From positions 1 through 54,932 of IMG/VR virus record IMGVR_UViG_2939147180_000006: 54,932 nucleotides of DNA; one strand, 5' to 3'. The position numbers were made by a program, and so were the translations under genes. Source of the stretch: a virus (Duplodnaviria > Heunggongvirae > Uroviricota > Caudoviricetes). A model generated the notes under the pieces. It saw only the letters and a list, made by a program, of their open reading frames with translations, did not search any database and had not been told where the DNA came from. This document shows positions 16,201 through 45,267 of the stretch, one piece after another. How positions within the stretch are numbered: the first letter of the stretch is position 1; every line of letters begins with the position of its first letter.

Positions 16201-16241
16201 TATACAAAATGGCTTCATTTCAACGAGTACATTTTGTATAA
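16201..16241. promoter_or_regulatory. Inverted-repeat motif TATACAAAATGG-N17-CATTTTGTATAA (candidate operator/promoter element)
   Basis: Read directly; the same half-site recurs in several other intergenic regions. Confidence 0.4.
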
Positions 16242-16318
16242 AGAAGATAAAGGAAAGGGATAGAGCGAAAGGATTTAAAAGGCCGGATTAACCGGAGGAA
16301 GCAAAAGAGGATAAGAAA

Positions 16319-16405
16319 ATGAAAAACTACTACCGACCCAACGAGCATGAGCGTTATACCGACTTCATCGAAGAAATGCTTAAAGCACTTAAAAATAAAA
16401 ACTAA
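16319..16405 (+). CDS. Possible small ORF (28 aa) at head of third moron operon
   Basis: AAGAGG RBS then ATG; MKNYYRPNEHERYTDFIEEMLKALKNKN; very short, uncertain. Confidence 0.25.
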   Translation: MKNYYRPNEHERYTDFIEEMLKALKNKN

Positions 16406-16417
16406 GCGGGGTGAGTT

Positions 16418-16768
16418 ATGAAACGGTTAATCAAAGCGGCGATGATGGCGGTAATGGTATGTTTAGCATTCAACGCCAACGCAGATAACAAGATTGATAA
16501 AGCGGAGCATGAATGCGCATTTGCCGCAGAAATATACGACTTAAAATACGGTGACGGTATGGGATACCTTGAGATTGTATATGACGCAGCTTGCAGGTAT
16601 AGGGCGGTAGTCCCGTTCCTTGGTGATGAAATTGCCGAAAAATTTAAACTGCACGAAAAATACAAAGATTTGGTAGACGGCATAAATGAACCTGAGCTAC
16701 TCAAAGCGGTTCGTGACGGCGAAGTTAAAGGATTCGCAATCCACCACAGAGTAAAGGCAGGCGTGTAA
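16418..16768 (+). CDS. Hypothetical secreted/periplasmic protein (116 aa) with N-terminal signal peptide
   Basis: N-terminus MKRLIKAAMMAVMVCLAFNANA has n/h/c-region signal-peptide character; RBS GGGGTGAG. Confidence 0.5.
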   Translation: MKRLIKAAMMAVMVCLAFNANADNKIDKAEHECAFAAEIYDLKYGDGMGYLEIVYDAACRYRAVVPFLGDEIAEKFKLHEKYKDLVDGINEPELLKAVRDGEVKGFAIHHRVKAGV

Positions 16769-16876
16769 ATGGAAACAATCAAAACTGTTATAGATGTATA
16801 TATTACAGCATGGTTAGCATTTAATATAATGGCTGTGCTAGTGCTGGCAATGACAACAGAAGATAAACGTAATTAA
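16769..16876 (+). CDS. Small membrane peptide (35 aa)
   Basis: TAAATG stop-start overlap with the previous gene; hydrophobic core ITAWLAFNIMAVLVLAM. Confidence 0.35.
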   Translation: METIKTVIDVYITAWLAFNIMAVLVLAMTTEDKRN

Positions 16877-16886
16877 GGAGTTCATC

Positions 16887-17189
16887 ATGGAAATGGTAAT
16901 TTTCTTTTGCGGATTCGTGGGAACTATGATTGTTGCCCAGAAAAGACATCTTAATATGCTCATGGCATTCATTGGCGCACTGATTTTTTGGCCTGCCGTA
17001 TTGATTTACGCACTGTGCGTTAACAAAAGGATGTTTAAACACTACGTCGATGCGGTGACTTTCGTAAGCATGGAGTTCCCTAACGCAACTGACGTACAGA
17101 AAGCACAGGTTGCAACTTACCTTTACGATAACGTGTACGATATTCATGACCTGGATGAGGCAAGATGCAGATTTGCAGCATACAAATAA
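16887..17189 (+). CDS. Hypothetical membrane protein (100 aa, two predicted TM segments)
   Basis: AGGAG RBS; hydrophobic segments VIFFCGFVGTMIV and LMAFIGALIFWPAVLIYAL. Confidence 0.5.
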   Translation: MEMVIFFCGFVGTMIVAQKRHLNMLMAFIGALIFWPAVLIYALCVNKRMFKHYVDAVTFVSMEFPNATDVQKAQVATYLYDNVYDIHDLDEARCRFAAYK

Positions 17190-17197
17190 AGATAAAG

Positions 17198-17222
17198 GCC
17201 CGGTTAATTCCGGGCTTTTTCT
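17198..17222 (+). terminator. Rho-independent terminator ending third moron operon
   Basis: gcccgg-ttaatt-ccgggc hairpin followed by TTTTTCTT. Confidence 0.65.
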
Positions 17223-24011: not shown

Positions 24012-25323
24012 CTACACTGGCAGGGCCATCGTATCCGGCAGCCTCGCGGATCTCGTCACCGCTAAATATTTCTTCACCAGTAGCCAAACAAGCCTGATTG
24101 ATTTGTGCCATTTTGTATGCCGCCTCCAGTAGTTCAGCTTTGGTCATGGCGTTCAGGTCGTCCCATATAACTGATACGTCAATTGGCATACTGATAAGGC
24201 GGAGATCTGCCATCTTGCGGAATAGATCCTCAAGCTCACCGCCGATTTCCTCCCTGCGGGTCATACAGCGGCTGTTGAAGTAGCGGAGGTCTTCGGTTGA
24301 TGCGCGTTCGCCCTGCTGGTTCCCAACCAGGATGCGGGTCGGAATATCAATACCAGCGGCGGCGGTTTGCAGGTTGACGTCATAGGTTGCTGACGGGTCA
24401 GATACGGCAGTCACCAGTGGGCTTACTGTTGCCCCCTGTAATGCCATCATCACGTCGTTACCCTTATTCATTTCAGCCGCTGCCTCATTGAATCTTTCGC
24501 GTAACTCTGTAACGTCGCAATCGTATGTTGCAGCAAGGGAACGGAAGTCAATCTCTTTATCGAACGAGATAGCAAGCTGGCGGGCGGCGTTTTTCAGGAA
24601 TGATTCACCGCTACCCCCCTCCACCTTCTCAAGTGACACAAAGGCGTTATAGGACGGTTCAAGGAAAGCGATGGCATCATCAGAATAGTCGCCAAAGATA
24701 AATATGCGGTCAGGGTGGATCTTTCTGGCAATGGTTTTACTGTTTATGCGCTCTTTGTATTCCCACCATGTAGGCAGGCCATAGTTTTCACTGTTCGGGT
24801 CTTCTTCAAATTCCTTCGGTGTAAGAGCGCCAGCCCATACCGGGGTAAATTTGGCAACACCTACGCCTTTCGTCACTGGCTGATCCCACGGCTGGTTATC
24901 TCTGACATGAATCAACAGGCCAGCATAACGACCAATGAGGCGGCGGCGGTCACATTCGGCAATGATGCGCCAAAATCTGTTATCAAACTGTTTCTTGATT
25001 TCTCTTTCCCAGGATGTTTCTGTTTCCGCTTTCTCGTCTTCTGTTCCTTCAATCATCGTTGGCCTGGTGCGCCAGCACGTCGTGATGATTTTCTCAATAG
25101 CACCGTGAGCAATACCGCCGCGACGATACAGTTTGTACAGGTCGTCATACGTGATCTCTTCTTTGAATCCGTATTCGCTCCACGCAGCATCACGTTTGGC
25201 ATCTATCCCCATAGTGAACGGGTGCGCTGCGGCATAGCGGGCATATGCCGCCTGGCGTTGTGACAAGGCAGCATTAACCGCCAATTCTAAATTGGATGGC
25301 ATAATGTTTACTCCTGAATACAT
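23932..25323 (-). CDS. Portal protein
   Basis: 463 aa between terminase large subunit and MuF-like gene; acidic C-terminal tail. Confidence 0.6.
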   Translation of the reverse strand: MYSGVNIMPSNLELAVNAALSQRQAAYARYAAAHPFTMGIDAKRDAAWSEYGFKEEITYDDLYKLYRRGGIAHGAIEKIITTCWRTRPTMIEGTEDEKAETETSWEREIKKQFDNRFWRIIAECDRRRLIGRYAGLLIHVRDNQPWDQPVTKGVGVAKFTPVWAGALTPKEFEEDPNSENYGLPTWWEYKERINSKTIARKIHPDRIFIFGDYSDDAIAFLEPSYNAFVSLEKVEGGSGESFLKNAARQLAISFDKEIDFRSLAATYDCDVTELRERFNEAAAEMNKGNDVMMALQGATVSPLVTAVSDPSATYDVNLQTAAAGIDIPTRILVGNQQGERASTEDLRYFNSRCMTRREEIGGELEDLFRKMADLRLISMPIDVSVIWDDLNAMTKAELLEAAYKMAQINQACLATGEEIFSGDEIREAAGYDGPASVVETEEEDDDEGEEDNQANTSSRDNAI

Positions 25324-28059: not shown

Positions 28060-28061
28060 AA

Positions 28062-31545: not shown

Positions 31546-31547
31546 AA

Positions 31548-32925: not shown

Positions 32926-32929
32926 GATG

Positions 32930-33393: not shown

Positions 33394-33399
33394 CCCCCG

Positions 33400-33630
33400 T
33401 TATGCAGTTGTGTAGCTGTCCACCAGCTTTTCATCTTTCATTCTGGCAAGCTGATCGGTGTTCATCGTGTAGCCACCATCAGAGAAAAGCAATTCAGCCG
33501 CAGCGCGACGAAAAGCAATATCATCATGGTTACGTGTCCATGTAGCGATCACAACGCGTTTCCCGTTAGTGGCGAACATAGACAATTCATTATCAACTAC
33601 GTCGATAGCCTGCCAGATTTTTAGCTCCAT
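33400..33630 (-). CDS. Hypothetical protein (76 aa)
   Basis: Track ORF in island. Confidence 0.35.
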   Translation of the reverse strand: MELKIWQAIDVVDNELSMFATNGKRVVIATWTRNHDDIAFRRAAAELLFSDGGYTMNTDQLARMKDEKLVDSYTTA

Positions 33631-33986: not shown

Positions 33987-33990
33987 ATTA

Positions 33991-34203
33991 TCACCACATC
34001 ATATAATAAACGTTCTCGTCAGCTAACATGTCAGCTACATCCTGCGTCATGTGTCTGGCCTCAAGGAAATATTCCTCACTATGCCATTCCCTTACAAGCA
34101 TACGCGCCCATTTACGGCGCTGGCGCTTATTGCGTCGCAGATCATCAAAAGCCTTTAATGCTTTGTCATATGCCCTTACAAGGCGCTTGCGGTTACTTTT
34201 CAT
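33991..34203 (-). CDS. Hypothetical basic protein (70 aa)
   Basis: Track ORF; Arg/Lys-rich. Confidence 0.35.
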   Translation of the reverse strand: MKSNRKRLVRAYDKALKAFDDLRRNKRQRRKWARMLVREWHSEEYFLEARHMTQDVADMLADENVYYMMW

Positions 34204-34206
34204 ATC

Positions 34207-34542
34207 TTAAAACCTATATTGCCAATAAATATCGCAGTTAATAGCAAAAACCTTAACAGGATCGTCACCAAATAAAGGATGTTGAATCGTCTTGATTGTG
34301 TACCCCATATAAGGAAGAATCAGTATTCGTTCTCTATCGTCGTTTGCAGGGTATCCCCATTTAAGAATCAATCTTGTATATTCCCTCCCCTCCAGGCGTT
34401 TACGCCAATAGTCATTATAAAGCCTGTATTCCTCCACCTTCTTTCCCGCCCGTATAGCGTGGAAGTATTCTCCTTTTAAATTCAAATGTAAGTGCTTATT
34501 TGCCATCACTATGATCCTGTAAACAGTCGTTATAGCCTTCAA
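34207..34542 (-). CDS. Hypothetical protein (111 aa)
   Basis: Track ORF in island. Confidence 0.4.
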   Translation of the reverse strand: MKAITTVYRIIVMANKHLHLNLKGEYFHAIRAGKKVEEYRLYNDYWRKRLEGREYTRLILKWGYPANDDRERILILPYMGYTIKTIQHPLFGDDPVKVFAINCDIYWQYRF

Positions 34543-34801
34543 TGTATCCGGTTAATCCGGTGTTACTCACTGACCATTCAGCCGAACGGCGCTTGATGGC
34601 CTTGTCCATAGTCATTTCACCTTTGCGGTGACATCCTGCATCAATGTAACGGTTGACAACTGAAGACAACCGTCCGCGTAGCTGTTGTGTTCCAGCGTAA
34701 TGGTGTGCCGTTTCCGTTAATTCGTTAACCAGTTTTGCAAATAGATGTTCCTTTAATTTAGGCTTCATTGTCGTCAACCTCGAAATACTGCTTAATAGCA
34801 C
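34496..34801 (-). CDS. Hypothetical protein (101 aa; likely starts at MKPKLKEHLF)
   Basis: Track ORF; alternative internal start reduces overlap with the upstream gene. Confidence 0.4.
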   Translation of the reverse strand: MLLSSISRLTTMKPKLKEHLFAKLVNELTETAHHYAGTQQLRGRLSSVVNRYIDAGCHRKGEMTMDKAIKRRSAEWSVSNTGLTGYIEGYNDCLQDHSDGK

Positions 34802-35105
34802 GTTTGACGTTCATTTCACGCTGATAATTGTTATCGCTATAGATTGCGGCTGCCGATACGTGATCGATAATTTGCTGTAATAAATCAGGATGAATTTTTA
34901 TTTTTTCATCAAGGACAATGCGAGATGGCTTATGTGCTGTAGCAATATCATTAACGATTTCTATCTCACCACCGCCGCCGCAGCGAGGACAAACGAATTT
35001 ATCACCTTGATACAGCATGAAGCCGCAACCTTTTTCAGTTTTTACGACCATACCATCGTCGTCGCAGTTTTCGCAATACAGCCACCCAATATTAATTATT
35101 TTCAT
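34758..35105 (-). CDS. Hypothetical zinc-ribbon protein (CxxC...CxxC)
   Basis: Start trimmed to MKIINIGWLYCENC; Cys pairs CENC and CPRC. Confidence 0.4.
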   Translation of the reverse strand: MKIINIGWLYCENCDDDGMVVKTEKGCGFMLYQGDKFVCPRCGGGGEIEIVNDIATAHKPSRIVLDEKIKIHPDLLQQIIDHVSAAAIYSDNNYQREMNVKRAIKQYFEVDDNEA

Positions 35106-35298
35106 TATCTTTATTCCGTCCGTAAATATGTACTGGCTCAACTGGTACGGCTGGCAATTCACCATCATTTAACGCGCTTGCCATACCCAATATTAATCGT
35201 GCTTCCGCACCAGTGACTTTCTTACACCATGCACCGCCAGTTTTATCTTCGAACAAGATAACAGCAAACTGATCGTTTATTTCCAGCTTATCCATCAT
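35092..35298 (-). CDS. Hypothetical protein (68 aa)
   Basis: Track ORF; 4-nt overlap with the Q-like gene. Confidence 0.35.
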   Translation of the reverse strand: MMDKLEINDQFAVILFEDKTGGAWCKKVTGAEARLILGMASALNDGELPAVPVEPVHIYGRNKDNENN

Positions 35299-36017
35299 TC
35301 ACCCCGCGTCACTCTTTTAATTTCGTTATCTGCCAGCGCCTCTTCTTTGAACAATTCAGCAATGGCGTCTTCATAGAAAGCCCGGTACTTTTTCCACCAT
35401 GTTGATCGGCTTACCGGAAAAACAAGCTGATTAACCGCCTGCCGTACAAGATCTACAGGGAAACGCGAGTACCCGCGCCCGCCGCAATGCTGGCACGTTT
35501 TGAACACTGGCATTTCCGCCGCTTCACTGGCTGCTTTATCCGGTACTTCGCCACGGCCCTTGCATTGTTTACAATGATTGCGAACTGTCCCATGCCCCTT
35601 GCATTTCTTACAAAGGTGTTTTTCTCCGTAGTCGTCAAACGTAAATTTATATCCGCCGCACTCCATACAAGTTTTTTCCGTCGCGGCACTCTGGCAATAA
35701 TCCCGAAACGCGAAAACGGCAACAAGAATAATGAGATCATTGCGTTTGGCCTCGTCCAGTTCCATAACGTATTCATAATCTTTTGCCATAGCCCTTAAAC
35801 GCTCTGTAAGCAAAACTACGGCCTTATGTTTTTCGGCTTGTGATAGTTCCATCTTCCCTAAAAAAGCGCTGTAACCAAGCTCTACGCGCGATTGCGCCAT
35901 GCCTGCTGCAGTTAGTGCATCCGTAGTATTAAGAGCATCCGGGGACGTGCCCCGGCTTTCATCTGACAAACGAGGTGATTTTGGGAAGTGGAATTTCAGA
36001 ATTGATTCCAGATTCAT
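35295..36017 (-). CDS. Putative late antiterminator Q-family protein with DnaJ-like CxxCxGxG zinc-finger repeats
   Basis: 240 aa directly downstream of ninG and rusA (canonical Q position); repeats CMECGGY, CKKCKGHG, CKQCKGRG, CQHCGGRG; family assignment from memory, unverified. Confidence 0.45.
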   Translation of the reverse strand: MNLESILKFHFPKSPRLSDESRGTSPDALNTTDALTAAGMAQSRVELGYSAFLGKMELSQAEKHKAVVLLTERLRAMAKDYEYVMELDEAKRNDLIILVAVFAFRDYCQSAATEKTCMECGGYKFTFDDYGEKHLCKKCKGHGTVRNHCKQCKGRGEVPDKAASEAAEMPVFKTCQHCGGRGYSRFPVDLVRQAVNQLVFPVSRSTWWKKYRAFYEDAIAELFKEEALADNEIKRVTRGE

Positions 36018-36211
36018 TATTTACCCCCGTAACGCGCAACCAGTCTTTTGCGATCAGATATTGCCTGCACTAGCTTTCTTTCAAGCTCTTTAAGTGCAAG
36101 CAATTCTCGCATGTGAAAAGCCTGTATTTGTCGCACAGTCTCTAAATCATGCTCATCGTGCTGAATATCTATTTGCAGATCTTTAATTTCGTTTTTCATT
36201 TCTAACCCCAT
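36017..36211 (-). CDS. Hypothetical protein (64 aa)
   Basis: Track ORF between rusA and the Q-like gene. Confidence 0.35.
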   Translation of the reverse strand: MGLEMKNEIKDLQIDIQHDEHDLETVRQIQAFHMRELLALKELERKLVQAISDRKRLVARYGGK

Positions 36212-36603
36212 ATATTCGTTGCGTATTCGTCAATATCCGGTAGTAGGTCACCGCGCTCGCGTACCTTAATAAACAATCGACCGCCTTTTACCTTCCGGCA
36301 GCGAACAATTTTTATAGAATCGATCTGCCCGTCGTCGGTCCAGAATCCAGCGTAAGTAAGGCTGTCAAAAAGGCATTTGGGGATATTATCCAGATCTCTG
36401 ATCCGGTTATCCGGCGGCGCGGCATAAATGGCTATTGCCAGTCGGCAAGATAGGTTGATGTTTAAATTTAATAGCTCGATGATGTCTCTTACCTGTTCCC
36501 TGTATTCTTTACCAACCTTGCTGATATAGTGAAAACCGCGTGAATGACGGTAATATCGGTTATTAGATGGTGGGTAAGGTAGGCTAAATGTATATTCGTT
36601 CAT
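36202..36603 (-). CDS. rusA: RusA-family Holliday junction resolvase
   Basis: 133 aa; N-terminus LPYPPSNNRYYRHSRG, then RDLDNIPKCLFDSLTYAGFW and KGGRL closely match E. coli RusA from memory. Confidence 0.85.
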   Translation of the reverse strand: MNEYTFSLPYPPSNNRYYRHSRGFHYISKVGKEYREQVRDIIELLNLNINLSCRLAIAIYAAPPDNRIRDLDNIPKCLFDSLTYAGFWTDDGQIDSIKIVRCRKVKGGRLFIKVRERGDLLPDIDEYATNIWG

Positions 36604-37205
36604 GCTGCCTTTCTCCTTAAGGCGTCCAATTTAGCCTGATAAACTTTTATGATCTCCTTGCATTCTTCGATCGTCCATTTGTGCGTATCATTGTTGTTCT
36701 CCAGTGCTACCACCCTGGCCAGGCCAATTTTTCGAATCAGTGCCGGGCGATACCCTCCGATGTTGCCGTCTAATGTCTGGTTGCAGTGCCTGCATTGTTT
36801 GTGACAATTATCCTCATTGAAGCGAAGGTGTCCGGCGGCTGCTACCGTTCTATAGTGTCCGGCATCCCATGAACATTGCTCGCCGTAGTAAGTGCCGCAT
36901 GATATACACGGCAAACGAGCGTCACGCTCGCGGATATATGCATTAAATACCGCTTGCGCCTGCTTGATCCAGTAACTACGCGGATTTAACTGTTTCCGCT
37001 TCCGGTTGCGTTCTTCCCGCTGGCTGTCGCGGCGTTTCTTCCGTTCCATAGCCTTCATAGCCTTCTCACGGTCGCGGCATAACTGGTCAAACTTCAGTTC
37101 TTCCAGACATTCGTCACTGCACCACGTTTGATTGTGATATTTAGGCTCAAAAAAAACGCCGCAGCACTTGCAACGGCGTCTTATGGGTTTTTTAGGGTTC
37201 TGCAT
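36600..37205 (-). CDS. ninG: NinG / Rap-like recombination-associated protein
   Basis: Cys-rich protein (CKCCGVFF, CISCGTYYGEQCSWDAGHYR, CRHCNQ) directly upstream of rusA; start trimmed to MQNPKKPIRRR. Confidence 0.7.
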   Translation of the reverse strand: MQNPKKPIRRRCKCCGVFFEPKYHNQTWCSDECLEELKFDQLCRDREKAMKAMERKKRRDSQREERNRKRKQLNPRSYWIKQAQAVFNAYIRERDARLPCISCGTYYGEQCSWDAGHYRTVAAAGHLRFNEDNCHKQCRHCNQTLDGNIGGYRPALIRKIGLARVVALENNNDTHKWTIEECKEIIKVYQAKLDALRRKAA

Positions 37206-37243
37206 AAAAACCACCCCGATTATTTTTGATTCTCTGTTTCGTT

Positions 37244-37396
37244 CAGCCTTTCGGCGTGTCCGGCCCTTAGCCAATGTTCTAAACATTCGTTGCACTCGTT
37301 ACAGCCTCCTTTCTTAGTGCTGCATACATTACACATTGCACGCATGACGCTTTCTCGCTCATAGTCGTCATGCCATTGGTAATCATCAAAAGGCAT
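37244..37396 (-). CDS. Small zinc-ribbon protein (50 aa) upstream of ninG
   Basis: Manually translated MPFDDYQWHDDYERESVMRAMCNVCSTKKGGCNECNECLEHWLRADTPKG; AAGGAGAG RBS. Confidence 0.4.
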
Positions 37397-37473
37397 AATG
37401 CTCTCTCCTTTTCAGGTGATTTATACGCATTTCAGCGCTGCCGGATTTTTAAAGAGCATTTGTTTGCTTGAAG

Positions 37474-37552
37474 TATACAAAATGGATACGTCATAACAAG
37501 CTGAAAAGCGCCATTATGTGATCCGTATCACACAATGACGCCATTTTGTAAA
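37474..37552. promoter_or_regulatory. Regulatory region: TATACAAAATGG and CCATTTTGTAAA in inverted orientation flanking CRP-consensus palindrome TGTGATCCGTATCACA
   Basis: Read directly; TGTGA-N6-TCACA at 37517..37532; intergenic between C5-MTase-like gene and ninG block. Confidence 0.45.
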
Positions 37553-37554
37553 CT

Positions 37555-38337
37555 TCAGTCAGGCAAAACACGGTTAAGCGTAGTACGATTGATGGCCCTG
37601 TCGTTAGCCAGGAATACAGCACGGGCAAAGCCGCGCGGCGTTAGCGAGCGGATCATCTTTGTTCGTTTCGTCCGGCCTCCAGTTTTAGACCATCCCGGGT
37701 TATCACCAGAGTTAAGATCTACAGGTCTGAAAAGCGGTTGTTTAAATCCGTTACCGCACCAAATACAAGTTTTCTTTGTATACGCGTCGCGCGACGGGTA
37801 AACATCCTGGAAAGCAGGATGCTTGTCATCTTCCGGCAGGTAGCCACCGTAAGCGCAAGGATTAAAGATAAAATCCGGTTTACGCCATAACGTTGACAGT
37901 GCGCCCACCGGATTTTCCACCATCCACGGCACGTTATACATATTTGCCAGTTTTTCTACAATTTTTGCGTTATACGCCGCCTTTACCTGGAAGCCAGGAT
38001 CTTTTTTTCGCTTATCAGCGAACCAGCGAGCGCCAGACACAGCGAGATCGTCGCATGGAGGAAAGCCCAAGATAATGTCAGGCTCTGGATAAACAGACAA
38101 TTCAGGGGAGAACATTACCAGGAAATGGCTGTCAATCCATACGTTAACATATTCAATATTCGGATGAATGATTTTAACGCCTTCATAATCGCCGTGGTTT
38201 GCGCCGTCATAGTTGAAGCAATAGCACTTATATCCAGCATCCGCCCAGTCTTTAACGGCATATCCGCTGCCGTCGTACAGCGACCACACAACCCAGCTTC
38301 TAAGCCAATTATTTAACCAGTGTTTAGCCTTGCTCAT
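37555..38337 (-). CDS. Putative DNA cytosine-C5 methyltransferase (compact, divergent)
   Basis: 260 aa; motif-I-like SLYDGSGYA, motif-IV-like GFPPCDDLAVSG, motif-VI-like WMVENPVG; target-recognition region short. Confidence 0.5.
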   Translation of the reverse strand: MSKAKHWLNNWLRSWVVWSLYDGSGYAVKDWADAGYKCYCFNYDGANHGDYEGVKIIHPNIEYVNVWIDSHFLVMFSPELSVYPEPDIILGFPPCDDLAVSGARWFADKRKKDPGFQVKAAYNAKIVEKLANMYNVPWMVENPVGALSTLWRKPDFIFNPCAYGGYLPEDDKHPAFQDVYPSRDAYTKKTCIWCGNGFKQPLFRPVDLNSGDNPGWSKTGGRTKRTKMIRSLTPRGFARAVFLANDRAINRTTLNRVLPD

Positions 38338-38846
38338 TTTCTGCCCTCAAACGTGAGATAGCGGCGCATGATGATAGTGATCACCGTTACCGCTGCCATT
38401 TTTGAGATGAACTGCATAGCTGATATTTCAGGCATAAACGCCATAAACGATAGCGTGGGGAAAATCAACGCATCGCCAATGGCTGACGCTATATTTGCAG
38501 GCCAGCGTTTCGAATCGAAATCACCAGGCAAAACCCGGTAAACACCGCCAGATATAAGCGCACCAGAAACAACCGCGACGAATGACGCGATTGCCACCAT
38601 CCCTGCGTCATAATTTATCAGCACCGTGATTGCGCCAGCGGCGGCGCATGTTGTAGCCGACCATTTCAGGCCGCCGTCATATAACAGAAAGTCGCGGATC
38701 ATCATATTGACACACACTACTGCTACCGTGGTGATAGGAATTACCCACGGGCCGCAATGGTTAACAATTAGGTTGATGATCACGAAAACGGCGACATAAA
38801 CGCAGGCCAATAACCTGTCAATCGCCACCTTTTTCATTTGGGTCAT
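38334..38846 (-). CDS. Integral membrane protein (about 5 TM; possible Vut/YhhQ-like transporter fold)
   Basis: 170 aa, very hydrophobic; segment PANIASAIGDALIFPTLSFMAF loosely resembles a YhhQ motif; weak. Confidence 0.3.
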   Translation of the reverse strand: MTQMKKVAIDRLLACVYVAVFVIINLIVNHCGPWVIPITTVAVVCVNMMIRDFLLYDGGLKWSATTCAAAGAITVLINYDAGMVAIASFVAVVSGALISGGVYRVLPGDFDSKRWPANIASAIGDALIFPTLSFMAFMPEISAMQFISKMAAVTVITIIMRRYLTFEGRK

Positions 38847-39333
38847 ACCTCTTATCGCGAATAGCCTCAGATCTTTTAAAATTCAAGTCAAGTCGAGTTG
38901 AAAGACAACCGCATTGAGGGTTAATCTCCGAAGGCTCAAAGACATCACGGAATTTTATAACCCCATCCTTTACCATCCCTTCACTAATGTTGGCGGCAGT
39001 GAACTGGTTTTTATTTTGCTCCACCTCCCGATCATTCAGTATCTGCTCCGCTTTTAGTGCGCTGTAGCTGATTAGGTCAACCAAAGTGTCAGTAGGGTCA
39101 GAACCATTAACCAAAATGGCTTCTAAACGCGCCTCCTTGAGGCAAATCATAAGATCCCATACATCAAGTGGGGTTAAATTTGCGCCCTTCTTAGCGTTGT
39201 ATATAGTGGCTATTTTTGGCGCTGATTTTTCTTGTTTTCTGTCGTATCCGTTTTGTTTCCCTCTTTGCTCAATTGTTTCCGCTGCAAGTCGTAATAAATC
39301 TGCTACACTAGTCATTATCTGCACCTCTTGCAT
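38818..39333 (-). CDS. Hypothetical protein (171 aa)
   Basis: Track ORF between the two methyltransferase genes. Confidence 0.4.
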   Translation of the reverse strand: MQEVQIMTSVADLLRLAAETIEQRGKQNGYDRKQEKSAPKIATIYNAKKGANLTPLDVWDLMICLKEARLEAILVNGSDPTDTLVDLISYSALKAEQILNDREVEQNKNQFTAANISEGMVKDGVIKFRDVFEPSEINPQCGCLSTRLDLNFKRSEAIRDKRYDPNEKGGD

Positions 39334-39859
39334 ATAGATCTTTGCGCGTTACGTGTGTAAAAATACATTCATGTCTGCACCGTGGATGCCAGATCAAAAA
39401 CAAGCTGCCTTTATTGTTTCCGCTCACTGGCTTACCAGTCGCAGCATTTATAAAAGCCAGCCGCCCGCGCGTGATTAATCTGCATTCGTTTGCCGTCTCA
39501 ACGCCGTTCATAAACCAGCCAACAGAAATATCAGCGGGCAACAACATTACGCAACCTATATGATTTCGTTTATGTTCTATCGCCGCCTTATCAACGAATG
39601 GCCCCGGATTCGAGTATGGCGGATTCATCCAGACATACTCACCAGGCATTGCCACCGCTCCCCACGGATAATGCAACGTGTCCATTTCTTCTGTTATATA
39701 CCGAGGAACTAGCGCATTTTCCTCGCTTGCCGCCACATCTGCGACAAATTCGAACTCGCGATCCATTCCTCTAAAAACTGGTTTTGGCGTCTGCCACAGG
39801 TCTTTTATTTCCTTCGGCGTGTTGCTGCCTCCAAAATCATTTTTCATCATTACCCCCAC
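39308..39859 (-). CDS. dam: Phage-type DNA N6-adenine methyltransferase (Dam family)
   Basis: 183 aa; catalytic motif WMNPPYS (NPPY); size and context typical of lambdoid phage Dam proteins. Confidence 0.7.
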   Translation of the reverse strand: MGVMMKNDFGGSNTPKEIKDLWQTPKPVFRGMDREFEFVADVAASEENALVPRYITEEMDTLHYPWGAVAMPGEYVWMNPPYSNPGPFVDKAAIEHKRNHIGCVMLLPADISVGWFMNGVETANECRLITRGRLAFINAATGKPVSGNNKGSLFLIWHPRCRHECIFTHVTRKDLYARGADND

Positions 39860-40098
39860 TAAAAATAATCCTGGTCAGTCCCCCATCTATTATTGAGATA
39901 CCCCACCAACCACACAAAACGTTCAATACTGATTAGCGGGGCGACCTTGCGATAATGCTTTTCTAATATCAGCCGCGTAGCTTTATCGCTGTAGCCGTTT
40001 CTTTCTACCTCTGATTTGCAGGCAGAAAGCGCCGCACGCGCGGCAGTTTTTACGGCGTTGAATTGCGGCTCTGACAGGTTAAATAAAGCCATTTTCAT
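39859..40098 (-). CDS. Hypothetical protein (79 aa)
   Basis: Track ORF, co-directional early-left operon. Confidence 0.35.
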   Translation of the reverse strand: MKMALFNLSEPQFNAVKTAARAALSACKSEVERNGYSDKATRLILEKHYRKVAPLISIERFVWLVGYLNNRWGTDQDYF

Positions 40099-40337
40099 AA
40101 ATCATCAGTAGAATCAGCGAAAAAGAATCCTATAAATACACTTGCGGCAATAATTATCCTTAACCCATAAAGCGCATCTTCAGGTGATGGCATTTCTGGT
40201 AGTTCCCATGTAACAAAAGACACGCCGCACAAAATTCCAATAAAAACAGTGACAATGCATGAGAATACGAAAAAAGAACAAAATAACCAGCCAACGATGA
40301 AGTCAATAAGTGCACGCATCATTCTAAACATCCTCAA
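40095..40337 (-). CDS. Hypothetical membrane protein (80 aa)
   Basis: Track ORF; two hydrophobic segments. Confidence 0.35.
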   Translation of the reverse strand: MRMFRMMRALIDFIVGWLFCSFFVFSCIVTVFIGILCGVSFVTWELPEMPSPEDALYGLRIIIAASVFIGFFFADSTDDL

Positions 40338-40527
40338 TCACACCGCCTTGCACGCGTTCCTTAATATCCCACACATGAGGCTTGCATATTTCTTGATAAT
40401 AGTGATCCGGCCTGCTGCCGAAATACCATTTCCCTTCCATATAAAAATAAACGCCCGAAAAGTTTCCGGGCGCTGCCTTTGTTGCTGACTCTGGAATTTT
40501 CCATTCTCTGTAATGTTTAAACCGCAT
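40324..40527 (-). CDS. Hypothetical protein (67 aa)
   Basis: Track ORF. Confidence 0.35.
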   Translation of the reverse strand: MRFKHYREWKIPESATKAAPGNFSGVYFYMEGKWYFGSRPDHYYQEICKPHVWDIKERVQGGVIEDV

Positions 40528-40711
40528 GTAATGACACCTCCCGGATAAGTTTACTCAATTCAATGTCTGGTAGTCTGCGAAAATGCTGTACACCATCGAC
40601 AAAGCGCACGCAATAAATATCGCCTACATTGTTGTAGTAATAACAGCCGCTAAAACCAATTCCCGCCAATTTAGCGTTATCAGGCAACGTATAACCGCCA
40701 ACATTTTTCAT
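40517..40711 (-). CDS. Hypothetical protein (64 aa)
   Basis: Track ORF. Confidence 0.35.
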   Translation of the reverse strand: MKNVGGYTLPDNAKLAGIGFSGCYYYNNVGDIYCVRFVDGVQHFRRLPDIELSKLIREVSLHAV

Positions 40712-40809
40712 AAATCACCTCATATGGTATTCAATAAACCACCTGATAAACAGGCATAAGGCAATAAAACCCCAGCAAATGCACATAAATAGAAGTGGAT
40801 CGTCCATAG

Positions 40810-41028
40810 TTAAGCCTCAAATAATGCGTAGTCGAATTTGCCCAAATATCTTTCAAGGCTGACTATCTCAACGCCATCAACGCATCGCTTCCACACAGAC
40901 ACCTGGTTTTCATTTTCCCGGAAGTGCATATTAGAAAGCACTTCATCGGCTGGATAGCTTTTCCCGGCGACGTAGGCATCACTACCAACGCCACCTTCAA
41001 CACAATAAAGCATTAATTCGCGGGCCAT
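40810..41028 (-). CDS. Hypothetical protein (72 aa)
   Basis: Track ORF. Confidence 0.35.
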   Translation of the reverse strand: MARELMLYCVEGGVGSDAYVAGKSYPADEVLSNMHFRENENQVSVWKRCVDGVEIVSLERYLGKFDYALFEA

Positions 41029-41127
41029 CTTGTTTTCCTCCGTGCCGTAAACATTTTGATTTCAGTTTACAAAACGGATTCGCGATCGCAACACAAAACG
41101 TATATTTATGCGATCGCAACCACAATG

Positions 41128-41748
41128 TTAATGAAGTACGCGCTTTTCAGGTTCAGGCATTGGCTGCACGTTTTTCCGTACATCATTAAGCACAGCTATA
41201 GCCGCCTGTACACCTAAATCATTTGCACGCATATTATTCCCAACCATTTCGCCGTAAAACAATGGCATGATCGCCTTTACGTCTTCCTCTTTGTGCCCTT
41301 CATCAATACACTTCTGTAACGCTTTAGCCTCGAATATTTCTTTCATTACGCCGCGCATAGAATACAGCGCAACGCTACCCATATGATTTTCATCTAACGG
41401 GAAAATAACCGCACTTCCGAACGCCAGCGGGTCAATTTCTTCCGGCACTGGTACTCGTCCAAATTCTTCTTCCATTCGTTTTACGAAAGTAAGGCAGAAG
41501 ACATAACGAGCTACAGCCGTTTTTTCTTCAGCGCTTAAAGACACATAATCGCGGATCGACGCATCCATCACAATATCAACAATCTGTAACGCCAGATTCA
41601 AATCAGCGTCATACTTGCCAGCTTCCATATCTTTCAATACTTCGTGATAATCTTTAATTTCAACTTCATGAAAACTTGCGTCTTCAGTGTAGCGAGTGAT
41701 TAACATGCCTTCGCTGCCTAGTGAATAAGCTGTTTTGATGTCGTTCAT
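41128..41748 (-). CDS. Hypothetical protein (206 aa)
   Basis: Track ORF, largest unknown in early-left region. Confidence 0.45.
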   Translation of the reverse strand: MNDIKTAYSLGSEGMLITRYTEDASFHEVEIKDYHEVLKDMEAGKYDADLNLALQIVDIVMDASIRDYVSLSAEEKTAVARYVFCLTFVKRMEEEFGRVPVPEEIDPLAFGSAVIFPLDENHMGSVALYSMRGVMKEIFEAKALQKCIDEGHKEEDVKAIMPLFYGEMVGNNMRANDLGVQAAIAVLNDVRKNVQPMPEPEKRVLH

Positions 41749-41760
41749 GATATTTATCCT

Positions 41761-42093
41761 TTATAGTGGGTGATGCCATTTCATTTCGGTTTCTGGATTG
41801 AACGTGTTTCCTTCACTTGAAAGGAATAAATCACGCGCCCGTTTTAGTTCTTCCTGGATTATTTCAATTTCATCAATCTGACCGAACGATCCAGGCATCA
41901 TCCGTTTTAAATCAGATAGAGGGCGCATAAGTCCGCAGCCACGTAACAACATGTCTAACGCGAACTGCCGCCGCCCTGCCGCATCATTAAAGCGCCGAGA
42001 ATAAGGAACAACCACAATCCGGCGTTCGAACTCAATAAATAGCGATAGCTTGTTAGTTTCTGCGTCATATGCTTTATGGAATTTAATTTTCAT
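41761..42093 (-). CDS. Hypothetical protein (110 aa)
   Basis: Track ORF. Confidence 0.4.
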   Translation of the reverse strand: MKIKFHKAYDAETNKLSLFIEFERRIVVVPYSRRFNDAAGRRQFALDMLLRGCGLMRPLSDLKRMMPGSFGQIDEIEIIQEELKRARDLFLSSEGNTFNPETEMKWHHPL

Positions 42094-42274
42094 CTAACAC
42101 CTCGATATATTGTTCAAGATGCCATCTGCCGACTTCCTTCAGGTCTTCATCGTATATAACGACTTCCCCGCCCTGCATGATCATGAAGGCAGCTGCTGTA
42201 AATTCACGCCCCCACCACGCCTTTAATCGCTCACCGCCTTTCAGGTCTTTGACCTTTACTTCTTTTATAGCCAT
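42083..42274 (-). CDS. Hypothetical protein (63 aa)
   Basis: Track ORF. Confidence 0.35.
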   Translation of the reverse strand: MAIKEVKVKDLKGGERLKAWWGREFTAAAFMIMQGGEVVIYDEDLKEVGRWHLEQYIEVLDEN

Positions 42275-42537
42275 ACGCCGTACATCCCATTAAGTCCGGC
42301 GAATAATTTCCGCCAGTGGTCTTCAACATAAGCCCGGAACGGCTTAACGCGAACATTGCGTGCCTTCAGTTCAATCTTGTCAAAGAAACGCGGCTCTATA
42401 ATTGTTCCGTCCAGGTATTTAACCAGGATCGGGCGCTCAAGATCATTAAATGTCTTATTCAGCACGACCAGGCCAGGGTCACTACGATACTCAGGCAAAA
42501 CAACAAGATCGCCATCTTTTGCATTCCAAGTAATCAT
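42265..42537 (-). CDS. Hypothetical protein (90 aa)
   Basis: Track ORF; ATG at 42537 (table start at 42540 is a GTG codon). Confidence 0.4.
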   Translation of the reverse strand: MITWNAKDGDLVVLPEYRSDPGLVVLNKTFNDLERPILVKYLDGTIIEPRFFDKIELKARNVRVKPFRAYVEDHWRKLFAGLNGMYGVWL

Positions 42538-42653
42538 CACATCACCCCGCCGATATAGCTAATAATTGCCGCAGTAGCGCCAGCCATTACCACCATGAAG
42601 ACGAAAGCGACCACGCAGAAAACAGCCCTTACAGTATTTTTATCGACTCGCAT
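42537..42653 (-). CDS. Small hydrophobic peptide (38 aa) MRVDKNTVRAVFCVVAFVFMVVMAGATAAIISYIGGVM
   Basis: Manually translated; stop overlaps the next gene's start. Confidence 0.3.
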   Translation of the reverse strand: MRVDKNTVRAVFCVVAFVFMVVMAGATAAIISYIGGVM

Positions 42654-42660
42654 ATAAGCC

Positions 42661-42768
42661 TCACATGTCAGTAATCAGCTTAACAATCGCCACAGTGATA
42701 TAAAGTGACGCACTAAGGTAAACAGCCGCCACAGCAACAAATGCGGCTAACATTGCAATCTTTTTCAT
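42661..42768 (-). CDS. Small hydrophobic peptide (35 aa) MKKIAMLAAFVAVAAVYLSASLYITVAIVKLITDM
   Basis: Manually translated; ATGA overlap with the upstream gene stop. Confidence 0.3.
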   Translation of the reverse strand: MKKIAMLAAFVAVAAVYLSASLYITVAIVKLITDM

Positions 42769-42989
42769 TTGCCACCCTCCGCAATGAATTTATCAAGCCA
42801 TTTGTTATTCGCCAGGCGTTCGGCATCTTCGCCGAATGATTTACGGTCATTCAATTCCTTGCGAGTAGGCAGAGGCCATTTATCATGCCAACCAGCCGAC
42901 GTATCGAACTCATACAGGCCACCATCAAAAGTAACGTAGTCATCTGCTGTGTCAGGCATTTCCTTATCAACTTCTTTATCTTCGATCAT
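42765..42989 (-). CDS. Hypothetical acidic protein (74 aa)
   Basis: Track ORF. Confidence 0.35.
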   Translation of the reverse strand: MIEDKEVDKEMPDTADDYVTFDGGLYEFDTSAGWHDKWPLPTRKELNDRKSFGEDAERLANNKWLDKFIAEGGK

Positions 42990-43003
42990 GATTTAATACC
43001 TCA

Positions 43004-43282
43004 TTAATCGTTAATAACCTGACCCATACGCCCGCGATATTTGCGCATACGTGGATCGACATATTCAGGCCAATGCATATCCGGTTTTCTTTGCAGTGGG
43101 TAAAAACTTGCCTGCCAGTTGTCGAACCATATTTGTTTTGCGTACAGGTCACTAAATCTTTTTGCCATCCGTTCCGCTGCCGTTCCGCATAAAAAAAGCC
43201 CATGATCGATATGATCACGGGCTTCTTTTAGAACTTGCTCTTTTGTTCGCGGTGGCGGTGGCGGTTTTAAATAATCACCCAT
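43004..43282 (-). CDS. Hypothetical protein (92 aa)
   Basis: Track ORF. Confidence 0.35.
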   Translation of the reverse strand: MGDYLKPPPPPRTKEQVLKEARDHIDHGLFLCGTAAERMAKRFSDLYAKQIWFDNWQASFYPLQRKPDMHWPEYVDPRMRKYRGRMGQVIND

Positions 43283-43297
43283 CGCTAACCTATTGAA

Positions 43298-43714
43298 TCA
43301 GAACGGAATATCATCGTCGAAGTCCATCGGCGGAGGATTATTCACGTTATTATTTTGATGCGGTGGCGCTTTCTGCTGCTGGCCTTGCTGCTGGCCTTGT
43401 TGGTTAACGTTCATGAATTCAAATTCGTTAACCGCCACTTCTACCGCCGTCCCCTTCGTGCCGTCGTTCCGGTCATATTGCCGAACATCCAGGCGACCGC
43501 TTACCACTATTTTCCCACCCTTGCGGATATGTGGCGCTAATTTTTCCGCACGCTCGCCAAATACCAGGCAAGTGACCCACATTGTCCGCTTATTATCGCC
43601 GTAGCCATTCGTTACAGCTAACGGAAAACTACCAATCGCTTTTCCGTTTTGCGTGTAACGAACTTCCATATCATTCCCGATATTACCGCCAAGTGTGATT
43701 AAATTTAAGCTCAT
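43298..43714 (-). CDS. ssb: Single-stranded DNA-binding protein
   Basis: 138 aa; OB-fold-like N-terminus, Gln/Gly-rich linker, acidic C-terminal tip DFDDDIPF. Confidence 0.85.
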   Translation of the reverse strand: MSLNLITLGGNIGNDMEVRYTQNGKAIGSFPLAVTNGYGDNKRTMWVTCLVFGERAEKLAPHIRKGGKIVVSGRLDVRQYDRNDGTKGTAVEVAVNEFEFMNVNQQGQQQGQQQKAPPHQNNNVNNPPPMDFDDDIPF

Positions 43715-44355
43715 TAACTGATCTCCCCGTTAAGCTCTTTTAATCGAATGTCATAAACGTCTTTGGCTTTCTGTTGCTGCTCTGAATCTTTAGGCAGTAG
43801 CTTCCAGCACTTCCCGAAGATCTCGCGCAATTTGTTAGCGTCCTGCGCTTTCGCTGCCGCATCACAGAAACGCGCTAACACCTCATCAGGATTTGGAGGC
43901 GCTTTCTGCTGCTGTGGTTGTTGTTTTGGTGGGTTTTTCTGCTGGCGTGGCTGTTGATTTGTCTGTTTCGCGTAAGCATCAGTATCAGGATCTTTTGCGT
44001 CATCAATGCAGAACAACCCGTTCAAAGCGTATTTACGCGCGTAACTTGATGTCGCGCCAGTTAACTGGCTTGCGTCCATTCCCTTCTTGCTTTCTTCCTC
44101 CCTGGCGTAAGCCGTTACCGCTATTTCATCCTCACCGTCGCTTAGTGTCGCAGTGGCTTTCACATAATAGCGATTGCCGATCAGGACAATTTCATCGCTT
44201 ACAGTCAGAGTAATACTTTGAAGCAGTGGTTTGACCGCTTCTAAAATATCCTCCGCCGACCTGTAATTGTATCCACCGAAATTATTACGCTGATTTTTCG
44301 GTGCGTTCAGCGTTTGCTGAATCGTCCGCAGTTTTTTGTGTAACTCTGTTTTCAC
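43714..44355 (-). CDS. erf: ERF-family single-strand annealing recombinase (P22 Erf-like)
   Basis: 213 aa; N-terminal region incl. VLIGNRYYVKATAT and GATSSYARKYALNGLF closely resembles P22 Erf from memory. Confidence 0.85.
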   Translation of the reverse strand: MKTELHKKLRTIQQTLNAPKNQRNNFGGYNYRSAEDILEAVKPLLQSITLTVSDEIVLIGNRYYVKATATLSDGEDEIAVTAYAREEESKKGMDASQLTGATSSYARKYALNGLFCIDDAKDPDTDAYAKQTNQQPRQQKNPPKQQPQQQKAPPNPDEVLARFCDAAAKAQDANKLREIFGKCWKLLPKDSEQQQKAKDVYDIRLKELNGEIS

Positions 44356-44504
44356 TCTTTAATCTCCTTCGCTGTTAACACTATGTATAAGGCTTTATTC
44401 GCGGCGCTCCACATTTCGGCATCATGAAGCATTTCCGCTACCGCCAGTTTGAATTGAAGCGCCTGAATAACCATAACGTCACCTCCGGCTGTTTACATTT
44501 TGTA

Positions 44505-44795
44505 TTAATGGTAACGGACTTTATCAAGGGGTTTTTCCCCTAAATGGCGTGGTTGCGTTGCGTGGTAGTAGTTGCCGCTTTCATTTTCCGTATACCATTT
44601 TACTGCTCCTTTGCGACGTTCTTTAATGCTATTTGGTTTGCATCTTTCCTCGTTTGCAAAGCGAATAGCTTTATCCACATTGTCTGTTTTATTAATTGCA
44701 GGTGATGATTTTCTTTCGTTTTCTCTTTTTATTCTTCTGCGTTCCCTGGCATTCAGTTTACTGTCACATTTGCCATACATGATTGTAACTGTCAT
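44505..44795 (-). CDS. Putative N-type antiterminator (P22 gene 24-like) with arginine-rich motif
   Basis: 96 aa; N-terminus MTVTIMYGK...NARERRRIKRENERK (ARM-like); first gene downstream of the pL-type region. Confidence 0.5.
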   Translation of the reverse strand: MTVTIMYGKCDSKLNARERRRIKRENERKSSPAINKTDNVDKAIRFANEERCKPNSIKERRKGAVKWYTENESGNYYHATQPRHLGEKPLDKVRYH

Positions 44796-45267
44796 GATCT
44801 GATCTCCTTATATCCTTGATGATACTTAATAAAAAATCATCTTCGTTAATTGCCGCACTTCCAGCGGCTGACCAGATTGTTAAAGAATGGCTTAACATCT
44901 TTCAACTAATCCCGCAATCATCGCCGTTTCCGGTGTGACCCTGCTCACTCCAAGCAAGCTGACTTGTCGCCTTGCGTGCGGTTTCGTGGGGGATGTAACG
45001 CTTTAAACACCCCATGCGCCTTGTTATCAGTGCCGCTTTCGGTCCCCCATCGGGGAGTTACTCCACGGTTGACAAGGTGTTAAGCCTGATTTTTAAAGTG
45101 CCAGGAAGGTGCTTTTTTGTTTACTGCCTCCTTCCTTTGATTCGCAATATACGCCCTGTGATATGTCGAGTCAATCCATTTTGTATACTTTTTAAAAAAA
45201 TTTTATATCTTATTGATATTTAAATGATAAAACTGTTTTTTTGTTTACGTTTTGGCGTTTTTGGTGG

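Follow-up and report, generated by a model that had tools for sequence, protein, structure and literature searches.

Temperate coliphages of the mEpimmI group are reportedly as frequent as lambdoid phages among the Nus-dependent temperate coliphages from human faeces, and their characterization has shown that the CI-like repressor Rep021 experimentally confers immunity and that an N-like antiterminator, Gp17, acts at nutL, nutR1 and nutR2; a Q-like protein and the terminators t1–t5 have also been described (PMC11893012). Rep021 is reported to lack the Ala-Gly cleavage site, the lysogens are not UV-inducible, and, with no operator sequence given, discussion has been limited to the possibility that the repressor recognizes operators other than those of lambda CI (PMC11893012). 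The window analysed here, the whole 54,932-nucleotide stretch of the IMG/VR virus record IMGVR_UViG_2939147180_000006, is a mEp021-like (mEpimmI) temperate coliphage, and a megablast search with its positions 28000–46500 returned only mEp021-like coliphages (mEp010, 554, 044, 013, 515, 021 and MagusPhagus) at 88–91% identity. It contains a recurrent A/T-rich box, with TATACAAAATGG as its conserved part, on both sides of the repressor gene rep and at promoter-like sites around the genome. We consider it probable, with roughly two chances in three (0.68), that these boxes are operators of the CI-like repressor Rep, used at about a dozen promoters around the genome and not just next to its own gene. 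The operator had not previously been described in the literature searched, in which the repressor Rep021 is known and its operators are not, and a literature search with the box sequence itself returned nothing relevant. The published regulatory map of mEp021 (Rep021, Gp17, nutL/nutR1/nutR2 and t1–t5) agrees with the window in phage group, gene order, nut sites and terminators, but includes neither an operator sequence nor a promoter upstream of nutR2; the box, its approximately 20 positions and the promoter PR2 are added by the present analysis.

Other phage repressors are known to act at dispersed asymmetric sites. The P1 C1 operator is an asymmetric 17-bp sequence scattered genome-wide in either orientation, as single, overlapping or inverted-pair copies, at many transcription units including the antirepressor operon, while the stoperators bound by gp71 of mycobacteriophage L5 are 13-bp asymmetric repressor sites in short intergenic gaps, far from the immunity region, which all have one orientation with respect to transcription and stop elongation within operons. 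The boxes of the window resemble P1 operators in being dispersed, asymmetric, present in either orientation and single or paired, although C1 is another kind of protein and Rep is of the lambda type, with Pfam HTH_3 (E = 3e-13) and Peptidase_S24 (E = 3e-19) domains. They share with the L5 stoperators an asymmetric sequence placed in intergenic gaps far from the immunity region, but they occur in both orientations and keep a fixed −16/−41 register over promoter hexamers, which favours control of initiation over a block to elongation. With lambda CI, P22 c2 and 434 the system has in common a repressor composed of a helix-turn-helix and an S24 domain, operators on both sides of rep that overlap divergent early promoters, half-sites 10 bp apart, one operator at about −42 of a candidate maintenance promoter and nut sites (N-type antitermination) after the early promoters; neighbouring boxes are 24–26 bp apart, compared with 24 bp between OR1 and OR2 of lambda. 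It differs from these phages in that the operator sequence is unrelated and lopsided, consisting of one good half-site and a conserved A/T centre, and in that some 20 boxes are located far from the immunity region, where they mark a second rightward promoter, the candidate late promoter and the junctions of tail genes; unlike lambda, the mEp type has no cro beside rep.

Exact copies of TATACAAAATGG are found at 16201 (plus), 31909 (minus), 37474 (plus) and 45176 (minus), copies with one mismatch at 16229, 37541, 24108, 49804 and 52721 (all minus), and variants with two mismatches at positions that include 3487, 3550, 44495 and 46020 (all minus). With up to two mismatches the window holds 25 copies against 7.5 expected, a number reached in none of 100 shuffles, and the core ACAAAATGG is present 11 times against 1.03 expected. 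Non-coding DNA makes up 12% of the window, with a GC content of 42.5% compared with 45.9% overall, and contains four of the four exact, seven of the nine one-mismatch and 11 of the 25 two-mismatch copies; a Markov model trained on non-coding DNA alone (1000 simulations) predicts 0.003, 0.08 and 1.2, with simulated maxima of 1, 1 and 6, so that the intergenic excess proposed in an earlier note on this DNA persists after composition correction. Each of the coordinates named in that note carries a box, and boxes are conserved at orthologous positions in mEp021, mEp010 and 40-odd IMG/VR relatives, the latter sampled in the neighbourhood of the repressor, Q and tape-measure genes. We conclude that the recurrent TATACAAAATGG box is real, that it is conserved and that its distribution is not random. 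The note had placed all copies in non-coding gaps, and this is true of most of the good ones; the copy at 49804 overlaps a stop codon and that at 24108 lies within the portal gene. The latter (CATACAAAATGG, 24108–24119) is the sole good box deep inside a gene, and its conservation in mEp021 and mEp010 is probably coding conservation.

The 12-mer is best read as the conserved part of a 15-bp operator composed of the half-site TATAC, an A/T-rich centre, AAAAT, and then G(G/T). The outer half-site is a strong T(A/T)TAC, the 5-bp centre is usually AAAAT and the inner half is weak, starting with G(G/T). With its half-sites 10 bp apart, each 15-bp box would accommodate one repressor dimer, and the single box is taken as the unit because homologous repressor modules show half-sites with this spacing. 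A 434-like reading of the box, ACAA-N6-TTGT, was inconsistent from site to site and was abandoned.

Each inverted pair consists of two adjacent 15-bp boxes with centres 24–26 bp apart. The earlier note had proposed an operator for a dimeric regulator, which was right in kind and wrong in geometry: an operator is the best-supported reading, but a single dimer reaching across pair arms 16–17 bp apart fails, since arm centres 28–29 bp apart are too far for a helix-turn-helix dimer and the homologous modules are 15-bp units. Nor do the pairs have the constant spacing that was claimed, as the gap between 12-mers is 16 nt at 16201/16229, 31881/31909 and 12970/12998 (a pair that the note overlooked), 15 nt at 41066/41093 and 55 nt at 37474/37541; the partner at 31877–31892 contains a 1-nt insertion (TATAACAAAACGG). 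Measured from centre to centre, the two boxes are 25 bp apart at PR, 31.9 kb, 16.2 kb and 13 kb and 24 bp apart at 41 kb. The distance is larger at PL (35 bp), in the gap between the methyltransferase gene and ninF and before the tail-fibre gene (63–64 bp), and for a further box at PR (about 70 bp). Single boxes are also present, and both box orientations occur.

Inverted arms could also indicate hairpins in RNA or single-stranded DNA, acting as processing sites, terminators or attenuators; the 12-bp arms could indeed pair, and those at 37.5 kb extend to 16 bp and enclose the terminator t4. We regard this as most improbable. When 16 distinct versions of the 16.2-kb pair are compared, ten of the 12 putative base pairs are constant and the two variable ones lose pairing without compensatory change, and the candidate hairpin or RNase III site was rejected for this lack of covariation. 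Moreover, boxes also occur singly and as direct repeats, the predicted transcription start is downstream of most arms, no U-tract is present, and scans for Rfam families and tRNAs returned nothing.

The proposed binder is encoded by rep (45299–45946, minus strand), whose 215-residue product is a CI-like immunity repressor, a homologue of Rep021 and 93–100% identical to the repressors of the mEpimmI relatives. By comparison with the mEp021 annotation, the minus strand carries, in order, rep (45946–45299), t1, PR, nutR1, the N-like gene, erf and ssb and, further on, cytosine methyltransferase, t4, nutR2, ninF, ninG, rusA and Q, followed by the lysis, head and tail genes, which reach position 150. 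PL, on the plus strand, starts near 46040 and reads into the replication genes, with nutL downstream. On the two sides of rep, the boxes O_R2, O_R1, O_L2 and O_L1 overlap the PR and PL hexamers.

At PR (TTGACT-17-TATATT, 45146–45174, minus strand; ten of 12 consensus positions, with a boxA-like sequence of nutR1 about 60 nt downstream), O_R1 (TATACAAAATGGATT, 45173–45187, minus) lies at about −41 and overlaps the −35 hexamer by 2 nt, and O_R2 (TATAC-GCCCT-GTGAT, 45148–45162, plus), 25 bp away, lies at about −16 and overlaps the −10 hexamer by 4 nt. This is the site at 45176 that the earlier note had assigned to a pL-type region; in mEp021 nomenclature it is PR, upstream of nutR1 and the N-like gene. 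In 33 distinct relatives, about 85% identical over this region, the 15 columns of AAAGTATACAAAATG are invariant, as are TTGACT and GTATATT, and the spacer and surroundings drift. The inner half of O_R2 is limited in these relatives to ATCAC, TTTAC and TATAC, variants known from other boxes, while the rest of the spacer drifts. The divergent relative L188 has an O_R1-type box at the equivalent position, about −41 of its own PR, and ATCACAAGGCGTATA at the position of O_R2. A further box, TTTACGTTTTGGCGT (45244–45258, plus), is located about 70 bp from O_R1 and just downstream of terminator t1, and CCAAAACGTAAA is kept there in 42 loci. The end of the N-like gene carries AATACAAAATGTAAA (44492–44506, minus), of which the half-sites are kept in 42 loci and the centre varies (AAAAT, ATAAC or ATATC). 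About 75–85 bp upstream of the PR start there is, in addition, a nearly invariant ATTGATATTTAAA (TTTAAATATCAAT on the sense strand; 45212–45224), which resembles the IHF core (WATCAA...) with one mismatch in the TTR part.

On the other side of rep, O_L1 (TTTACAGAATGGCGT, 46017–46031, minus) lies at about −16 of PL (TTGACC-16-TAAACT, 46006–46033, plus) and overlaps its −10 hexamer TAAACT; L188 carries GTTTACGAATTGG over the TAAACT of its own PL. O_L2 (GTCACAAAATGTATT, or AATAC-ATTTT-GTGAC in reverse; 45982–45996, plus) is 35 bp from O_L1, is kept in 25 distinct relatives and corresponds in position to GTCACAAAATGGCGC of L188. It is placed at about −42 of a candidate leaderless rep promoter, either TTGCAT-15-TATAGG or TTAACA-17-TACATT, and we infer that PRM lies here. 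Just downstream of the PL start (46033–46068), a second dyad family, ACTTGCAGACAAGGTAAGT and CTTGCAAGGATGCAAG, is kept in the relatives and absent from PR, with a lone GCAAGT at 45979–45984; it could be an operator for another factor or a structure in the nutL leader.

Homologous repressors provide the link between the box and Rep. The P0008 repressor is 56% identical overall and has an identical recognition helix (ITKGGLSHWLNGRREP); its phage (L188) is diverged from the window and syntenic with it, possesses a cro-type HTH_3 gene and carries boxes at about −41 of PR, over the PL −10, beside the rep promoter and over the cro ribosome-binding site, as well as a box pair around the hairpin before ninF and, ahead of an ANT/Rha antirepressor gene, two perfect copies. 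L188–L191 (Logan contigs) form a diverged sister lineage of mEpimmI with the same gene order, in which the ANT/Rha antirepressor is found in some members only. More distant repressors, P0009, P0013 and P0020 (47–52% identical) and IMG/VR relatives (36%), lie in prophage contexts that differ in their neighbouring genes and have dyads in the cro–rep gap and just downstream of rep (TATACGTTTCGTATT, TATACATTTTGTATT, AATACGTTATGTATT, TATACATAACGTATA and AATACAAAATGGAAC). Counts of T(A/T)TAC-N5-GTAT(A/T) over the homologous modules are 10, 7, 7 and 4 against simulated means of 0.5–1.1; beside rep there are ten in L195 (1.09 simulated), seven in L192 (0.73, including AATACAAAATGG) and four in L047 (0.52), and L195 has three dyads on each side of rep, spaced by 25–26 and 33–34 bp. 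Boxes of the T(A/T)TAC type accompany similar helices in L192, L194, L195 and L047, a Shewanella homologue with an altered helix (L196) has TGTAC-N5-GTACA instead, and a Salmonella P22 c2-type repressor locus (L197), which shares S24 and has a different helix-turn-helix, contains no boxes and shows the expected P22-type operators. Box type thus tracks the helix across homologues, which indicates that the box travels with this helix-turn-helix. Since the mEp-type phages have no cro-type HTH_3 gene divergent from rep, Rep alone among the helix-turn-helix proteins was seen next to boxes in all of the lineages examined. A profile search of genome contigs with the repressor alignment found no relative, and the viral search repeated with this alignment returned the same loci.

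The relation of the boxes to promoters is also regular. At eight promoter-like sites, namely PR, PL, PR2, the candidate late promoter, an internal early promoter (about 41.07 kb), the tape-measure promoter and the 16.2-kb and 13-kb reverse-cassette promoters, a box is centred near −16 with about four bases overlapping the −10 hexamer, and a partner box usually lies near −41, 24–26 bp upstream. Read outwards, the box gives CC(A/G)TTTTG followed by TA(T/A)A(C/A)(T/A), that is, the end of the spacer and the −10 hexamer. Five of the eight associated −35-like hexamers match TTGACA at at least four of six positions at a distance of 16–17 bp, which chance would rarely give. A promoter-consensus scan of the whole window yielded a total count equal to the shuffle expectation; it was used for positions only and not as independent evidence, and the individual promoters are predictions because the scan was no richer than shuffles.

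The shared promoter architecture suggested by the earlier note is borne out to the extent that the outer TATA(C/A) of the box forms the first −10 bases at PL, PR2, the tape-measure promoter and others. The motif might then be a promoter core inherited by duplication with no dedicated binder, CCATTTTG plus TA(T/A)A(C/A)(T/A) being the sigma-70 −10 region or, when read in the opposite direction, a proximal upstream-promoter (UP)-like element at −48 to −37 of a divergent promoter. The outer TATA is truly within the −10 hexamer, PL, PR2, the 41-kb promoter and both 16.2-kb promoters are built as [-35]-N8-CC(A/G)TTTTG-[-10], and ACAAAATG resembles the proximal UP consensus, AAAAAARNR. This explanation nevertheless appears unlikely. 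The PR box and site C (O_C) have no usable outward promoter and yet are invariant, and boxes are also found over ribosome-binding sites, after a stop codon and as tandem direct copies upstream of the antirepressor gene. The box type flanks homologous repressor genes in differing prophages and changes with the recognition helix, and genuine promoter families conserve the −35 hexamer and spacer at least as well as bases −20 to −13. A sigma-70 UP element would be an A/T-rich tract of loose sequence at −40 to −60, whereas TAC and TGG are invariant in the boxes, which are also found away from promoter-upstream positions.

A second alternative is that the boxes bind an activator from about −42 (class II style), either another phage protein or Rep itself acting mainly as an activator of lysogen promoters (rep and the reverse cassettes). 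At PR, at the late, 16.2-kb and 13-kb promoters and at the mEp021 gp68/gp63 cassette promoters, the end of the forward box is 1 nt before a −35-like hexamer, several of these −35 hexamers are poor, and O_L2 has the corresponding position relative to the candidate rep promoter. Against this, PR has a near-consensus core with an A/T-rich upstream region and should need no activator, the strongest boxes at PL and PR2 lie over the −10, a repressing position, and a Pfam scan of 20 proteins detected no further DNA-binding domain apart from a below-threshold HTH_36/TrmB-like match in the first open reading frame of the PL operon. We hold this second alternative to be improbable, and repression by Rep is the preferred reading.

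Boxes away from the immunity region are conserved in a similar manner. At 41 kb, TTTACAAAACGGATT (41066–41080) and TATACGTTTTGTGTT (41090–41104, minus), 24 bp apart, overlie an internal early sense promoter (TTGCGA-16-TAAACT, 41064–41091, minus); both boxes are kept in 41 loci and the 9 nt between them drift. In the methyltransferase–ninF gap, the 30 distinct sequences compared contain, in sense direction, the stop codon, TTTACAAAATGGC, the t4 hairpin (stem kept, loop free, T-run after), variable bases, CTTGTT, six free bases and O_D, followed by an rrn-like boxA (TGCTCTTTAAAAATCCGG) and then boxB. O_C (TTTACAAAATGGCGT, 37538–37552, minus) directly follows the cytosine-methyltransferase stop codon and contains the invariant TTTACAAAATGGC. 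O_D (TATACAAAATGGATA, 37474–37488, plus) is at about −16 of PR2 (TTGTTA-16-TATACT, 37472–37499, minus; nine of 12 consensus positions), which lies between t4 and nutR2; GTATCC(A/G)TTTTGTATACTTCAA is invariant, the 6 nt upstream vary freely, and the CTTGTT and TATACT blocks are kept between variable stretches. The nutR2 elements, located as published (PMC11893012), are boxA at 37440–37458 and boxB at 37426–37439. A conserved sigma-70-like PR2 would explain in a simple way why the group has a third nut site. An uncertain weak box, ATCACATAATGGCGC (37508–37522, minus), is in the descending arm of the t4 hairpin; L188 has ATCACAAAATGG between its equivalents of the t4-flanking boxes.

Downstream of the Q-like gene (Pfam Antiterm), O_B1 (TATACAAAATGGCAT, 31906–31920, minus) and O_B2 (ATAAC-AAAAC-GGCAC, 31881–31895, plus), 25 bp apart, lie at about −41 and −16, respectively, of a candidate late promoter (TTGTTT-17-TATATA, 31878–31906, minus), and GGCAGTGCC(A/G)TTTTGTTATA is conserved at O_B2. 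The module, probably a late promoter, is kept in 27 distinct relatives, among which both flanks are unrelated. It is missing in some relatives (two alignment rows), and in mEp021 neither a match with at most one mismatch nor a blastn match to it was found. Its spacer holds an almost invariant palindrome, CGGCAGTGCCG (31890–31900), unlike the PR spacer, and this is a candidate binding element for the Q-like antiterminator. A sequence identical to the CRP consensus, AAATGTGATCTTTATCACA (31924–31939), lies 3 bp upstream of O_B1, with its centre at about −60 relative to the candidate late promoter; its left half, GTGATCT, is kept in relatives and its right half is often degenerate (TCGCA or CCGCA).

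These two features are what could be cited for binding of the boxes by a host protein (CRP, IHF, ArcA or similar) or by the phage Q-like antiterminator: a perfect CRP consensus adjoins a box, and the late-promoter spacer is unusually conserved. Such a binder is nonetheless very unlikely. The box fits neither the CRP nor the IHF consensus, and comparison by eye with consensus sequences likewise rejected LexA, TyrR, ArcA, OmpR, DnaA and the sigma-S −10. Box type follows the repressor helix-turn-helix in hosts from Escherichia to Shewanella, and positions at PL, PR and in the cro–rep intergenic region are unexpected for a Q-binding element, which the box itself is unlikely to be. No TGTGA-N6-TCACA dyad is present in the box, and the two perfect dyads of this type are separate from it, one beside the box at 31924–31939 and the other, the 'CRP-like site' of the earlier note (37517–37532), being the stem of the intrinsic terminator annotated TERM_4 in mEp021 (t4). 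As a second recurrent motif, TGTGAT-N4-ATCACA has two exact copies and seven with up to two mismatches, a number equalled in five of 100 shuffles. Of the regulators that the earlier note had listed, the CI-like repressor is the most likely, with Q-like, N-like and IHF candidates left without support.

At the tape-measure junction, O_E (TATACAAAATGGCTT, 16201–16215, plus) is at about −16 of the tape-measure promoter (−10 TATAAA, 16204–16199, minus; poor −35, CTCGTT) and at about −41 of a divergent cassette promoter (TTCATT-17-TATAAA, 16214–16242, plus). O_F (TATACAAAATGTACT, 16226–16240, minus), 25 bp away, overlaps the −10 TATAAA of this plus-strand promoter. O_E is invariant in 35 distinct relatives with at least four unrelated upstream reverse-oriented cassettes, and the 40-bp pair is kept, with the right half of O_F varying (GTATT, GGAGT, GGTAT or GTACT). 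A third box in the tape-measure leader, ATCAC-ATTTC-GTATG (16172–16186, minus), a pattern match 29 bp from O_E, has an invariant GATCAC in relatives. Since boxes are kept though neighbouring DNA is swapped, selection acts on the box sequence and not on the neighbourhood. Between flanking genes that are unrelated in different relatives, nothing is conserved but the promoter–operator cassettes (31870–31945 and 16190–16245; loci L050–L141), which sit at mosaic junctions and might serve there as recombination linkers.

Further boxes follow in the tail region. At a tail-gene/reverse-cassette junction, TTTACGAAATGGCTT (12970–12984, plus) and TATACAACTTGGCAC (12995–13009, minus) are 25 bp apart, with a predicted cassette promoter (TTCACA-17-TATATA) after the box at 12970; in mEp021 the orthologous junction carries TTTACAAAATGG c TTCACA, oriented into gp68-65. 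Between tail gene L and a reverse-oriented cassette, TTTACAATATGTATA (11021–11035) and TTAACAAAATGGCGC (11058–11072) lie on the plus strand, 37 bp apart. A perfect dyad, TATACATTATGTATA (3547–3561), follows the J terminator, 63 bp from TTAACAAAATGGAGT (3484–3498, minus), which covers the ribosome-binding site of the tail-fibre gene and whose GG contributes to the Shine–Dalgarno GGAG; L188 similarly has TATACAAAATGGAGTCAT over the ribosome-binding site of its antirepressor gene, and the 15 bases ACAAAATGGAGTCAT are common to the ribosome-binding regions of the two genes (3484–3498 and L188 8557–8568). Lastly, TTTACAAAATGGAAT (49801–49815, minus), of uncertain role, overlaps the stop codon of the gene before the helicase and is found in 35 of 43 relatives, a conservation confounded by coding constraint.

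We infer the binding of the boxes by Rep, and the sign of regulation at each, from the enrichment, the conservation, the fixed register with promoter hexamers and the association with homologous repressor modules, and several observations weigh against this interpretation. The strict dyad TATAC-N5-GTATA with up to two mismatches is not enriched in the whole window (27 copies compared with 20 expected). Most window boxes have one good half, the inner half reading GG(C/A)N(T) rather than GTATA, which would place a symmetric dimer on strongly unequal half-sites; the good dyads are few, at 3547–3561 and 44492–44506. Decay of the inner half to G(G/T)... in the mEp group, from a family sequence T(A/T)TAC-N5-GTAT(A/T), accompanied by conservation of the AAAAT centre, would explain this asymmetry. 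At PR the perfect box is the one at −41 and the −16 box has a G+C-rich centre, and, by analogy with lambda PRM, a repressor bound only at −41 could cause activation instead of repression. Where boxes cover the promoters of reverse-oriented 'moron' cassettes, these cassettes would be silent in lysogens, contrary to the common assumption that morons are expressed there. In addition, another protein conserved in all modules (for example, of the Cro type in the non-mEp lineages) would give an equal comparative signal, and the promoters concerned are predictions.

If the boxes are operators of Rep, a dimer on the −16 box would exclude RNA polymerase from PL, PR, PR2 and the late, internal and tail promoters, and the partner at −41 would stabilize binding through lambda-like pairwise cooperativity. 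Spacings of 35 and 63–70 bp could be bridged by short loops, and O_L2 may activate the leaderless rep promoter from about −42, as lambda CI does at PRM. For the mEpimmI phages, the analysis yields a consensus for the operator, maps about 20 sites and adds the conserved PR2 and a candidate late promoter. Were binding to be true, a CI-type repressor would control promoters genome-wide rather than from two operator clusters, and promoter–operator cassettes would stand exactly at mosaic boundaries, with a bearing on how acquired genes come under prophage control. A wider proposal, which we advance tentatively and consider rather less than evenly probable, is that the repressor directly gates nearly every transcription unit of the 55-kb phage, from the early left and both early right promoters to the late, tail and reverse-oriented cassette promoters, through approximately 20 lopsided operators built into −10 hexamers, with cassettes of 40–70 bp doubling as recombination linkers that keep new modules repressed; this would amount to P1- or L5-style silencing by a CI-type protein.

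The ends of the window carry near-identical 24-mers, AATTTGGTCAC(A/T)ATTTGGTACACA, at 66–89 and 54897–54920, each an internal doublet of ATTTGGT(C/A)AC. The window end coincides with the start codon of an integrase-like gene (53697–54932, minus strand) and, when the ends are joined, the repeats flank the int start within about 125 bp. In appearance they resemble the arm-type integrase sites of an attP, and the window resembles an entire genome cut open at the int ATG.

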